DNA of 64,000 bases from Eledone cirrhosa (taxonomy: Eukaryota), in assembly GCA_964016885.1 (NCBI GenBank), contig OZ024745.1, forward strand, positions 94,488,001 through 94,552,000, read 5' to 3'. Shown here one piece after another: positions 34,183-62,179 of the stretch. The notes under the pieces were generated by a model. It made no database searches and had not been told where the DNA came from. It worked only from the letters and a program-made list of their open reading frames with translations. The position numbers were made by a program, and so were the translations under genes. Numbering within the stretch: position 1 is the first letter of the stretch; each line of letters opens with the position of its first letter.

Positions 34183-34370
34183 CGGATTTTGGCAATATCG
34201 GAAGAGGGTCAGACGACATGCTTTGACGCATAGAGTTACGGCCCTTGCCATTCTGAGTTCAAATCCCGCCGAGGTTAACTTTGCTTTTCATCCTTACGGG
34301 GTCGATAAAATAAAGTACCAGTAATGCACTGGATATTTGTGGCCTTGTGCCAAAAGTAGAAACAATTATA
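34183..34370 (+). mobile_element. S1 SINE
   Basis: Full S1 body. Confidence 0.9.
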
Positions 34371-34443
34371 TATATTAATATTTTATACTCTGCTATGTAT
34401 TGAGTACCTTACTTACTATGGTTACCTAAATTAACCCGGAATA

Positions 34444-34538
<95 letters not shown>

Positions 34539-39688: not shown

Positions 39689-39763
<75 letters not shown>

Positions 39764-39811
39764 TAAGGAAAAGCGAAGTAGTTTCAGATGTTCAAGTCCT
39801 TTAATAATAAT

Positions 39812-39885
39812 GCTGTGATATATATTTCAATGACGACACTGGCCACACTCTTCTGTGTGCGAGTGTCGTGATATCATCAGACAGC
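39812..39885 (-). ncRNA. Type I hammerhead, family F8
   Basis: gctgt-CTGATGA-long stem II-GAAA-tatata-TC-acagc. Confidence 0.82.
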
Positions 39886-40753
39886 TTGTTACATAATAAG
39901 GTTATGTTTCCGAGGCAATCCAAATTGAATCGACATGGGAACGGATGAAGTGCGTGCTTCTGGGTTTTTCATCCATTCCCCTGTGAGTACCCATTCACCT
40001 CCACCGGTCTGCGCAGGCGCATGTCCGAAGGAAGTTGACCATTAGCTACCGCAGATTTCAACGAAATTCGAGTGAGGTTTTTTTGCGTGTGTTTGCATGT
40101 AAGGAGCATTGTCACATGTCCAATGTTTTTTCGTAGGTCAGCACTCTTTTTTTCTATTTTAGTTATATATGATGCTATTTTTGGTGGTGTTTTGTTCTTG
40201 TTAATATCAATCCGAATTCTCACTTGAAAAAAAAAAATTTTATTTTTTAATTTCTATTTGTTAATTTTTTAATTGTTTAATTTATAATTTCTGATATTTG
40301 ATTTAGGATTTTAATTTTTATTTCCAACGCTATCTCTTAACTTCCAATGTAAAACCATGATACCTAGAATTAAGTTTATTTTCCCTTATGAGTTGATGGT
40401 CAGTCGTACTGTCAACGCTTGGTGAGAGGTAGTATTATGACCTGTAAAAACTAACACTCTCCCATCCCCTCTGGCTTTCGGCTGACTGCCACAGTTGGGA
40501 TGGGTAGCAGTAAACTATGGTAAGGCATAGGTGGGCCATTGTTTGGCTGAGAGGGTGAACTGACTAAGCGAATTTCGTTGAAATCTGCGGTAGCTAATGG
40601 TCAACTTCTTTCGGACATGCGCCTGCGCAGACCGGTGGGGATGAATTGGTACTCACGGGGGAATGGATGAAAAACCCAAAAGCACGCACTTCATCCGTTC
40701 CCATGTCGATTCAATTTGGATTGCCTCGGAAACATAACCTTATTATGTAACAA

Positions 40754-40827
40754 GCTGTCTGATGATGTCACAACACTCGCACACAGAACAGTGTGGCCAG
40801 TGTCGTCATTGAAATATATATCACAGC
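40754..40827 (+). ncRNA. Type I hammerhead, family F8
   Basis: gctgt-CTGATGA-tgtcacaacact..cacac(agaaca)gtgtg..agtgtcgtcatt-GAAA-tatata-TC-acagc. Confidence 0.82.
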
Positions 40828-40950
40828 ATTATTATTAAAGGACTTGAACATCTGAAACTACTTCGCTTTTCCTTATTCGATATTAACTCCGTCACTCCTA
40901 TGTGGAAAAAGTACGTTGAGTGCTTGAATTTAATTGCATCAATGTTTACC

Positions 40951-51350: not shown

Positions 51351-51873
51351 ACACCTATACATAGACATCCATACATGCAGGTTTACACACATTCGCAAAA
51401 AGCATATTTATATACATGAACACTATATGATAAAAAGGAATTTAGAAATTATAAGTTTAATTAAACATATATCTATATTATAAAGCTGACGTCTGTAACA
51501 AACCTTTTGTCAAACGGCTGGACCAAACAGCACCAAATTTGCACCATAGATGTAACTTTTTCCAAGTAAGAAAGTGAGGGTATTTTTGTTTTCTAACTTT
51601 CGTTAAAATATTAAAGATTAACATTTTCAAATGTCAACACTTACGGTTATACGACATTTCTCTCTTTTTCTTAGTCTGTCTTTTTAGATAGATACATAGC
51701 TATAACGTCGCGCCCTTATAATATGTCTCTGTATGTCTGGCTGTCTGCATGAGATACATAGCTATAACGTCGCACGCTTATAATATCTGTTTGTCTGGCT
51801 GCCTGTCTGCATTGACTTCGCTTCTAACCAACTTTTAATTAATTCAGTGCAAAGATACCGCACGCCCTCCCAA

Positions 51874-51913
<40 letters not shown>

Positions 51914-52533
51914 GTAATAATAATAATGTGAAGACTAAAATCCAAAGAGGCTCGATAAGGATAAATATATATCAAATATATAAGAACCCTAGAGCAAATA
52001 TTGTTCTCATTGCTGACGTATTATCTTCGCTTTTTCCCATTCATTGCCAGGGAACGTCTCCACGAACCAAAGTATCGTCTTCCTGTTTTCCTTCGGTTGC
52101 AACGTTTTTCGAAATATTTACTTCTGCGTTCACAGATTGATTTTTTTTAGTTTCAGAAAATCCTGTTAAGGGTGAAAGCAGCGATTCTTTGCTTAAACTT
52201 TAATCTGTTATTTTAATATATATATATATAGATTTTGAGTTTATGTTGGTTGTATACCAACACCTCAGTATGCAGGCTGGAGCACTCGACGAAGTGCGCA
52301 GGTTGGTTTGGTTACTCCGGATTATTGTAAAATAAAGTTAAATAAAAGTCAAATGATTAAAATTTAGCTTCGTTTATTACTGCTATATATATTTCAGTGA
52401 CAGCCATCTTTGGCTGTGACCTCTTCAGTTCCTCAGTGAATTAACAACCCAACAAGGAACTGGGCATATCAGAGTATTGACAATATTATACACCTAAACA
52501 ACATGTGTACTTGTCTATACCATACTAATTCAA

Positions 52534-52588
52534 ACTGCCTGAAGAGGTCACAGCCAAAGATGGCTGTCACTGAAATATATATAGCAGT
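52534..52588 (+). ncRNA. Type I hammerhead, family F9; inverted copy on - at 52379-52428 lacks the 5' strand of stem I
   Basis: actgc-CTGAAGA-ggtcacagcc(aaagat)ggctgtcact-GAAA-tatata-TA-gcagt. Confidence 0.87.
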
Positions 52589-52797
52589 AATAAACGAAGG
52601 TAAATTTTAATCATTTGACTTTTATTTAACTTTATTATATATATATATATATATATATACGTTATTCCGGGTTGAATCGGAGGTAACCACAGTAAGTAAG
52701 GTACTCAATACATAGCAGAGTATAAAAGTTTTAATATAGATGAGATTCTACAGGACTAGAACTGTTTCATTCATTAGAAATCATCAGAAATCATCAG

Positions 52798-52850
52798 GAG
52801 ATTCCTGATGATTTCTAATGAATGAAACAGTTCTAGTCCTGTAGAATCTC
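52798..52850 (+). ncRNA. Type I hammerhead with a monomeric stem III, family F10; inverted copy at 52734-52787
   Basis: gagattc-CTGATGA-t-ttc(taat)gaa-t-GAAA-cag(ttctagtc)ctg-TA-gaatctc. Confidence 0.85.
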
Positions 52851-53451
52851 ATCTATATATATATATATATATATATAGATATAGATATACATATATATAT
52901 ATATAAACTTAATTATATATTCGTGTACATATATTTTTGCAGCATCAGGAAAGCACAGGCGGCTTATCGTCATTGTTACTGCCGATATGCGACCACAAAA
53001 ATCCCAGCCTGGCCGCAAGATCAGATTCCCCAGAAGAAAAAATGTTACTAGAACAACAGAGAGACTAAGCTTCGCGATTACCATCAACAAAGCTCCGGGT
53101 CAAACCCTAAAAGTGGCTGGCCTTCATCTGGGAAAAACTATGCTTTTCCCATGGTCAATTGTATGTAGGATGCTCTAGGGAGCTTGCCAAACAATCTCTT
53201 CATATTTGCTCCCGAGGGCCGAATAAAAAATATTGTATACTCTGAGGCTCTAACAATGTAATTTATGTATTTTCTGTTACTTTGAATTTCCATTATGGTT
53301 GTACAAATCTGGTTGATCAGTGGATATGCTTATATGAAGATCTGACTGATCAGCCAGTCTGCTAATATGCAAATCTGTCCGATCAGTCACTGTATATTTT
53401 AGAAAATATATATTTTCACTAGCTCTGACAGTTTGGCAGGTAAACAGTGAA

Positions 53452-60243: not shown

Positions 60244-60428
60244 TCGGTGGATTAGCAGTATCGGTAGAGGGTCGGATGCCATGCTTTGACGTTTAGAGTT
60301 ACGGCCCTTGCCATTCTGAGTTCAAATCCCGCCGAGGTTAACTTTGCCTTTCCTCCCTACGGAGTCGATAAAATAAAGTACCAGTAATGCTCTGGGTAAT
60401 TGCTGGCCTTGTGCCAAAAGTAGAAACA

Positions 60429-60464
<36 letters not shown>

Positions 60465-60655
60465 GGGCGGGGAATTGGTAGTATCAGTAGAAGGTCGGAC
60501 GCCATGCTTTGCAGCATAGAGTTACGCCCCTTTATGGTGTGAGTTCAAATCTCGCCGAAATTCACTTTGCCTTTCATCCTTACGATAAAATAAAGTACCA
60601 GTAATGTACTGCGTAATTGCTGGCCTTGTTCCAAAAGTAGAAACAATTATTATTA
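60244..60655 (+). mobile_element. Two S1 SINEs in tandem
   Basis: Bodies at 60244-60456 and 60465-60655. Confidence 0.9.
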
Positions 60656-60675
60656 TATATGTATATATATATATA

Positions 60676-61874
60676 TATAATATAAAGCTGACGGCCGTAT
60701 GTAAGTAACGAACTTTTCGCCAAACTGCTGGACCAAACAGCATCAAATTTGCACCATAGATGTAAATTTTTCCAAGTAAAAAAGTGAGGGTAGTTTTGTC
60801 TATTGAATTTTGTTAAAAGATTAAATACATTATTTAAATATTCACTTCTTTAAAATTTCAAATGTCAACACTTACGGTTATACGACATTCCTCACTTTTT
60901 CTTAGTCTGTCCTTTTAGATAGATACATAGCTATGACGCCGTGCCCTTATAATATGTCTGGCTGTCTGCATTAGATAACGTTTTTCGAAATATTTACTTC
61001 TGCGTTCACAGATTGACTTTTTTAGTTTCAGAGGATCCCGTTAAGGGTGAAAGCAGCGATTCTTTGCTAAAGTTTAATCTATTATTTTAATATATATATA
61101 TTTGTGTACAGATATTTTTGCATACACAAAATAAAAACCTATTTATTTCACGAAAGCACGGATACATGCCCACATTCAAAGTACAGGGCCAAGTGTACCA
61201 CACGATTGGAAGTCTCCTACCTCTGACCGACGAAGACCACAGGTTTTTGCAAATCTACTTCATTGGAAATGCAGATTCACAAGCGATACGTCGTCATCGC
61301 GCCATCTCAGGAACCAGACTTGAAATCATTCGCCAGTTACAGGACATGTTAAGCGACTTCAGTTTCCAATAAGACTAAGCTTCGCGATTACCATCAACAA
61401 AGTTCAGGGTCAAACCCGAAAAGTGGCTGGCCTTCATCTGGGTAAACCACGCTTCTCCCATGGTCAATTGTATGTAGGATGCTCTAGGGTGAGCTCACCA
61501 AACAATCTCTTCATCTTTGCTCCGGAGGGCCGAACAAAAAATATTGTATACTCTGAGGCTCTAACAATGTAATTTATGTATTTTCTGTTACTTGGAATTT
61601 CCATTTTGGTTGTACAAATTATTGTTTGTTAAAAAATGTGTTCTCTGTTCAGCGTTTATTGTTGTAACTATCAATTTTCTTTAACGTACTGGCTGCTGAA
61701 CGGCGGAATCCTAAAATCTATTCAAACCCAACACGTTAACTCCCCCCCCCACACACAGACCTCGCAGACTTAAGAGGGCGTGCGGTATCTTTTGCACTGG
61801 TGTGGAGGAGGGGATTCCTGAAAAGATAAAATGCCGGTATAACTAACCAGGGGCCAGCCGGACGGGTCAGCTAG
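60676..61874 (+). mobile_element. Non-autonomous (internally deleted) Helitron
   Basis: A Rep-side remnant MPTFKVQGQVYHTIGSLLP..FLQIYF is fused to the Pif1 C-terminus FPIRLSFAITINK..SHGQLYVGCSRV..TKNIVY. The 3' end is GC-rich and finishes with CTAG|t at 61871-61874. Confidence 0.88.
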
Positions 61875-62179
61875 TATAAATATATATATGACGGTAAAAA
61901 TAAATAAATAGATATAATAATATAAAAAAGCGAAAAATTAGAGATGTAAAAACGAATAAACAGATAAAAAATGTTTATATTTTCAAAACGTCAAAATGTA
62001 AACGCAATTATGATGGTGTTAGAGATGTTATGTGAAAAGATTTGAGATACGTCACGTAAAATATTTCGAAATGTTTTTATAAAACTTTATAAAATATTTA
62101 TATGAAAGTCTTATTGTGAGTTATTGCGAGATGTATATGGAACCAGGTATATGTCGGTAGCTAGAAAACAATTTAGACT

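Follow-up and report, generated by a model that had tools for sequence, protein, structure and literature searches.

Inverted Penelope-like terminal repeats in a Helitron-like repeat of Eledone cirrhosa and their possible origin by dual priming on one capped RNA

Introduction

How did two fold-back sequences, each with a hammerhead motif, come to lie side by side in one copy of a Helitron-like repeat at a site where another copy has only (TA)5, and what determines where their arms meet? The locus lies in a 64,000-nucleotide stretch of the Eledone cirrhosa genome (the window), and a sequence-only reading of this window took the units to be mobile, to target TA and to invert at the ribozyme's catalytic core. 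The locus itself is ordinary. Inverted terminal repeats (pLTRs), tails, pLTR promoters, hammerhead pairs on opposite strands and (TA)n targeting are already in print; its value lies in the counts that can be made in the two families. How tandem and inverted structures form is described as an open question by Craig et al. 2021 (PMC8557442), and antisense self-priming was proposed earlier as their origin (PMC3846280).

Results

The filled and empty sites (Table 1) have common flanks, the left one 94% identical over 127 nt, and the ~690 bp of the filled site are exactly two inserts, F9 and F10, with (TA)n between them. The pair of sites is therefore real, with coordinates and flanks as first described. 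Its description as a pair of sisters needs qualification: the flanks are the same, but L048 and L054, which have the ATTATATATTCGTGTAC variant of the filled copy, are nearer sisters of it than is the copy at 61 kb. About 35 nt that close sisters have immediately to the right of the site are missing from the filled copy (52939-52945), and further internal blocks differ between the filled and empty copies.

Table 1 Features of the filled and empty Helitron-like copies and of the two inserts (window positions)
Feature	Position	Strand	Remarks
Filled host copy, non-autonomous Helitron-like repeat	51472-53308	+	5' TC at 51472 after an A
Filled site	52215-52925
(TA)n target, left part	52217-52230
F9 insert	52231-52636
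F9 left arm, C3 (52428) to long 3' end (about +197 to +200)	52231-52428	-	3 mismatches to L288
F9 long 3' tail (~100 nt)	52231-52330
F9 inverted repeat	52328-52428 / 52539-52639		1/98 bases mismatched
F9 junction	52426-52428		CAG microhomology common to both arms
F9 right arm, -113 to +97 (short 3' end)	52426-52636	+
F9 type I hammerhead motif	52534-52588	+	C3 52539; predicted cut after 52583; z -2.87
(TA)n separating the F9 and F10 inserts	52637-52659
F10 insert	52660-52858
F10 left arm, C3 to long 3' end (about +127 to +129)	52660-52787	-	Compared with L137
F10 long 3' tail (74 nt)	52660-52733
F10 inverted repeat	within 52734-52858		0/54 bases mismatched
F10 junction	52788-52798		10-nt tandem duplication AAATCATCAG plus G just before predicted start
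F10 right arm, -6 (predicted transcription start) to +53 (shortest 3' end)	52799-52858	+
F10 type I hammerhead motif	within 52799-52858	+	C3 52805; predicted cut after 52843
Degenerate (TA)n target, right part	52859-52911		Before Helitron flank resumes
Putative helicase C-terminal remnant, filled copy	53062-53262	+	Frameshifted
Empty host copy	60679-61874	+	Ends CTAG before T
Empty site with (TA)5	61076-61122	+	Flanks match filled site
Putative helicase C-terminal remnant, empty copy	61372-61569	+

The pair could in principle reflect a deletion in the short copy, or a fold-back created during assembly. There are 41 matches to the empty site, and each of the 30 fetched is empty, with a query that is biased towards empties. 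When the left flank alone served as query, 11 of 30 copies were empty, 17 ran on into other sequence and 2 were filled, namely the window copy and L039. Empty copies are thus common, and the long Helitron copy therefore carries insertions, the empty form being the usual state of the repeat. An unequal strand distribution of F10 seed matches genome-wide (8190 versus 6523; F9 is equal, 1907 versus 1902) might be cited in favor of an artefact, but an artefact would yield neither unequal fixed ends nor the 1-2% differences that we observe from arm to arm. We find deletion or misassembly scarcely credible. Behind the same Helitron flank, at distances of up to ~220 nt, there are five other F9/F10 insertions (L134, L145, L187, L192 and L283). 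L039, at ~640 nt behind that flank, has an unrelated insert with inverted ends in the same Helitron (TA)n site.

We call the host 'Helitron-like', which is the safe label. Its two termini (Table 1; CTAG followed by T at 61871-61875) are on different copies, and a 3' end of the filled copy was sought within the window without success. No subterminal hairpin was found at 61845-61875, a segment that folds worse than all 200 of its shuffles. The remnants contain RLSFAITINK-QGQT and FSHGQLYV motifs, which we take to resemble the end of a Helitron helicase, and their helicase matches in Pfam are weak (E 0.03-0.06). Two copies of a SINE-like repeat (60248-60427 and 60467-60646) immediately precede the empty Helitron copy; the same repeat also breaks up the F10 copies L132 and L133.

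The anatomy of the inserts was resolved against longer natural copies, L288 for F9 and L137 for F10, with positions counted from C3 of the hammerhead. The inverted repeats hold as first delimited, but the arms had been drawn too short, omitting the long 3' tails of both families. As also described in the sequence-only reading, the common part of the arms starts at CTGANGA in both inserts, and stem I is kept in one arm only. The F9 right arm begins 9 nt inside the 5' hot spot of its family (see below), and the F10 core match at 52787 arises from the 10-nt junction duplication. An older copy of the F10 long tail (86%) is present at 34356-34445.

F9 and F10 contain the elements of a type I hammerhead (CUGANGA, GAAA, NUH and three stems), and we classify them as type I motifs for which self-cleavage is predicted. 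At 10.1/11.1 the F10 motif has a U.U, and another fold of the sequence is lower in energy (-8.3 kcal/mol, versus -5.4 for the motif). A sister family of F10 (L309, L312, L314, L315, L318 and L321) also keeps the U.U at the base of stem II, and the mismatch is therefore a family trait rather than decay; this family has a compensatory change in stem I (AGCTTC/GAAGCT). Rfam returned two tRNA matches in the window and no hammerhead at the gathering score. Elsewhere in the window, further type I motifs belong to at least three other families: 857, 27110 (+) and 34718 (-); 20470 (+) and 18750 (-); and 23375 (-) and 23785 (+). The common arms of the 18750/20470 pair extend ~105 nt upstream of C3 with no break at the core, and long near-perfect inverted repeats at 1148-1574 and 39761-40878 have no hammerhead core.

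From the reading frames into which their tails lead, we identify F9 and F10, to which the sequence-only reading gave no element name, as the pLTRs of protein-coding Penelope-like elements (PLEs) with Hydra-clade motifs. In some copies the tail continues into an ORF, in F10 one of 713 aa that is intact in L289, and in F9 an RT/GIY-YIG ORF pieced together from different copies (L257, L288). In both families a reverse transcriptase is followed by a GIY-YIG endonuclease in one frame, with YRDD and YIG motifs. Pfam gave no RT family match for these ORFs and a weak GIY-YIG match (E 0.13). By the motif criteria of Craig et al. 2021 (PMC8557442), whose description of the Hydra clade also includes a (TA)n preference, F9 has RMRWKAF and ADKT and F10 has the variant RIRWRAF and SDKT; the CxCx5C linker reads CNCRNPESC and CNCLNKEAC; and CxxC and CxH surround E and N (CKLC..E..N..CRH and CDLC..E..N..CMH). 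No CCHH motif was spotted by eye around the YIG motif.

Both families are abundant. Exact seed matches in the 3.0-Gb genome number 14,713 for F10 and 3,809 for F9, and (TA)n flanks the 3' end in 94 of 101 F10 arms and 81 of 90 F9 arms, which bears out the earlier proposals that the units are mobile and that they target TA. Each family has two classes of fixed 3' end, equivalent to an optional tail at one end that is longer than the usual 30-40 bp, and the first ATG (at +175 and +252 in the two families) is downstream of both 3' ends. Inverted element sequence lies directly upstream of 53/79 and 51/75 truncated arms in the two families, and partial tandem copies are also present.

Where do the arms end? 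We mapped the 5' ends of 101 F10 and 90 F9 arms (for F9, 90 of the 100 matches listed) with a seed downstream of the core; the samples are exact seed matches (young copies), all taken from the first part of one chromosome, and a few of them are likely segmental duplicates. The break is at C3 in both window copies, which favors the sequence-only reading of inversion at the core and would fit a reverse transcriptase that stalls or changes template there. Tabulating breakpoints relative to C3, as had been recommended, gave a divided answer: 51/101 F10 arms have their ends no more than 10 nt from C3, as stalling would have it, but 0/90 F9 arms do so. The F9 ends concentrate instead at -125 to -117 (29/90, with 1.3 expected if uniform), with a peak 122 nt upstream of C3. 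In F10, 47/101 ends fall at -8 to +3 (2.1 expected if uniform), the mode is -5/-6, where -6 coincides with the first base of stem I, and only 8/101 ends are at C3 ±1. Inversion at the catalytic core is therefore not the rule. The window F9 break at C3 is a one-off at the 3-nt CAG microhomology, and the F10 mode is accompanied by a TATA spacing and an extra G, described next. We consider a stall or switch at the core very unlikely.

The F10 hot spot has the surroundings of a predicted transcription start. The TATA sequence TATAAATA precedes A(-6) by 30 nt in 30/39 long copies and by 30-37 nt in 36/39, and CCAAT precedes it by 83-85 nt in 29/39; the bases around A(-6) agree with YYANWYY, the initiator consensus. 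Moreover, an extra G precedes AGATTCC at 19/49 TA-abutted F10 sites, a G that is absent from the target and takes a position that is C in the element (counted by hand over 84 distinct sites from the first 100 rows of 398). A control start at -16 gave 21 rows and no G, versus 398 rows for the -6 start, and a start at the ribozyme cut site gave 23 rows, a query that requires 3' ends beyond +57. A read-through count at the cut site (50/53) was biased by the seed and was set aside. In the sister family (about 70% protein identity), identified among 14 loci of related families of which 7 are without a core, the TATA spacing is the same and the predicted extra G was borne out in 25/35 cases (hand count, all 66 rows). 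In F10 and the sister family, the extra G likely records an RNA start that was capped. Reverse transcriptase could also add C without a cap; the end of the template would be marked either way.

The case for a start site is weaker in F9. There is no clear TATA box in this family, the extra G is rare (4/75 sites), and the bases at -122, ATAT, also fit the (TA)n target, so that microhomology with (TA)n may create or sharpen the peak. An identical CATATG at -37, however, draws 0 ends versus 29 at -123.

How are the two arms of a fold-back related? Head-to-head pairs combine one long and one short 3' end in 39/42 cases (F10 19/20, p 1.5e-5; F9 20/22, p 6e-5), with either arm on the left, and the other 3/42 do not. 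Moreover, the F10 loop variant is identical in both arms of all 18 pairs scored (9 T/T and 9 A/A). Identical arms would also be expected if one cDNA folded at its end and was copied back, or if an antisense template primed itself (PMC3846280), and some junctions do resemble tiny hairpins (GGA-ATC-TCC), while many F9 junctions are perfect palindromes. In snap-back, however, the copied arm is never longer than its template, and the long arm should reach further 5'; this was seen in 10 pairs, with the short arm reaching further in 20 and the two equal in 9. Such a reach of the short arm is not predicted by snap-back of a long cDNA. In addition, some junctions would need a 1-nt loop, and the G added at the sense start speaks for a template that was sense and capped. 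Snap-back or antisense self-priming thus seems unlikely to us. A systematic C/G difference between F9 arms (17 of 18 G-arm pairs with a C or T partner) was rejected as a signal: the query selected G, and the pattern fits ordinary mutation among thousands of copies.

Junctions are also diverse, with 10 offsets in 20 pairs and 13 in 21 pairs, and most are 1-8 nt overlaps or short inserts. A fixed palindromic unit moving whole, whether MITE-like or spread from one master copy, might account for one F10 junction that recurs in 17 of the 41 top matches to a junction-containing query, but this recurrence is query bias, and the seed-only samples give differing junctions. The ends of the fold-backs, moreover, are asymmetric and their arms read into the RT ORF, and we judge a fixed unit highly improbable. 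An apparent F10 beginning at GGAGATTC was likewise an artefact of the junction-containing query and was corrected by the seed-only sample.

Discussion

The window contains two independent pLTR fold-backs in (TA)n, each probably formed when both cut ends primed on the same RNA and the copies were joined head to head at or near the predicted start. For the families as a whole, we lean, with modest conviction, toward the view that inverted pLTRs are made by dual priming to the cap followed by end-joining, that their centers map transcription starts, and that the hammerhead of F10 and its sister family lies at the first bases of the transcript. Several steps would be involved. First, Pol II would start within the pLTR, at -6 in F10 and near -122 in F9 according to our predictions. 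Second, the protein of the element would bind near the start of the ORF and cut both strands of a (TA)n. Third, one cut end would prime at a near start site and the other at a far site ~70-100 nt further 3', and both cDNAs would pass through the uncleaved hammerhead up to the cap, where G would be added. Finally, microhomology of 1-8 nt, or short templated inserts, would link the two cDNA 3' ends, and fill-in would follow. Throughout, the hammerhead would be carried along as a passenger.

Dual priming has partial parallels in other systems. In LINE-1 twin priming, the same RNA also serves as template for priming by the second target strand, and microhomology is found at the join. L1 inversions cover non-overlapping RNA segments, however, whereas in the fold-backs described here the same segment would be copied twice. 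The inverted pLTRs described for Penelope in D. virilis and in Adineta vaga (PMC3846280, PMC2377424) are closer, with head-to-head arrangement, an optional tail, palindromic junctions and TATA/Inr-like motifs in the pLTR. They differ in that here both arms are solo pLTR pieces, the tail is ~70-100 nt rather than 30-40, and junctions are most frequent at the predicted start; the antisense self-priming put forward in PMC3846280 fits the present counts poorly. Cleavage and extension of both strands were shown in vitro for the Poseidon protein PAc (Frangieh et al. 2024, PMC11167929), which also uses two internal starts that bound the tail and accepts uncleaved RNA. These activities resemble those that dual priming would require, although PAc belongs to another clade and its start sites are in the ORF, whereas those proposed here are upstream of the first ATG.

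F9 and F10 resemble the Hydra clade, as described in PMC8557442, in their C-terminal endonuclease, RWK-type and DKT motifs, CxCx5C, CxxC/CxH, hammerhead and (TA)n preference. They differ from it in that F10 has RWR for RWK and that the units here, with 4.5 kb from core to core in L308, exceed the <3 kb given for the clade. The clade includes Hydra-1_Obim of Octopus bimaculoides, for which the supplement of that paper gives a (TA)n preference. Type I motifs in pLTRs are likewise described among the minimal PLE hammerheads of Cervera and de la Pena 2014 (PMC4209133), where opposite-strand hammerhead pairs 100-700 bp apart were already put down to truncated PLEs. Non-LTR retrozymes (bioRxiv 10.64898/2026.07.22.740005), by contrast, are described as head-to-tail tandems, whereas the units here are head-to-head or single, and no head-to-tail hammerhead units were found among the mapped F9 and F10 arms.

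Full-length elements call for an additional template. Among 16 ORF-bearing F10 copies (20 loci fetched, minus 4 without a core in the orientation of the ORF), 14 reach far upstream of the predicted start and 0 begin at -6. Full-length copies therefore need a tandem or circular RNA template, as proposed by Cervera and de la Pena 2014 (PMC4209133).

More broadly, these young and abundant families offer three countable rules, namely that a long arm is paired with a short one, that a single template serves both, and that they meet at the predicted cap. None of the three was found in our search of openly available full-text literature, and all of them could be tested in the existing in vitro system. 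If true, dual priming would explain a long-unexplained hallmark of Penelope-like elements.

In three F10 copies (L106, L108 and L114), the 5' end is joined, upstream of the F10 start, to an inverted duplicate of neighboring non-element DNA, which suggests a template switch onto the target.
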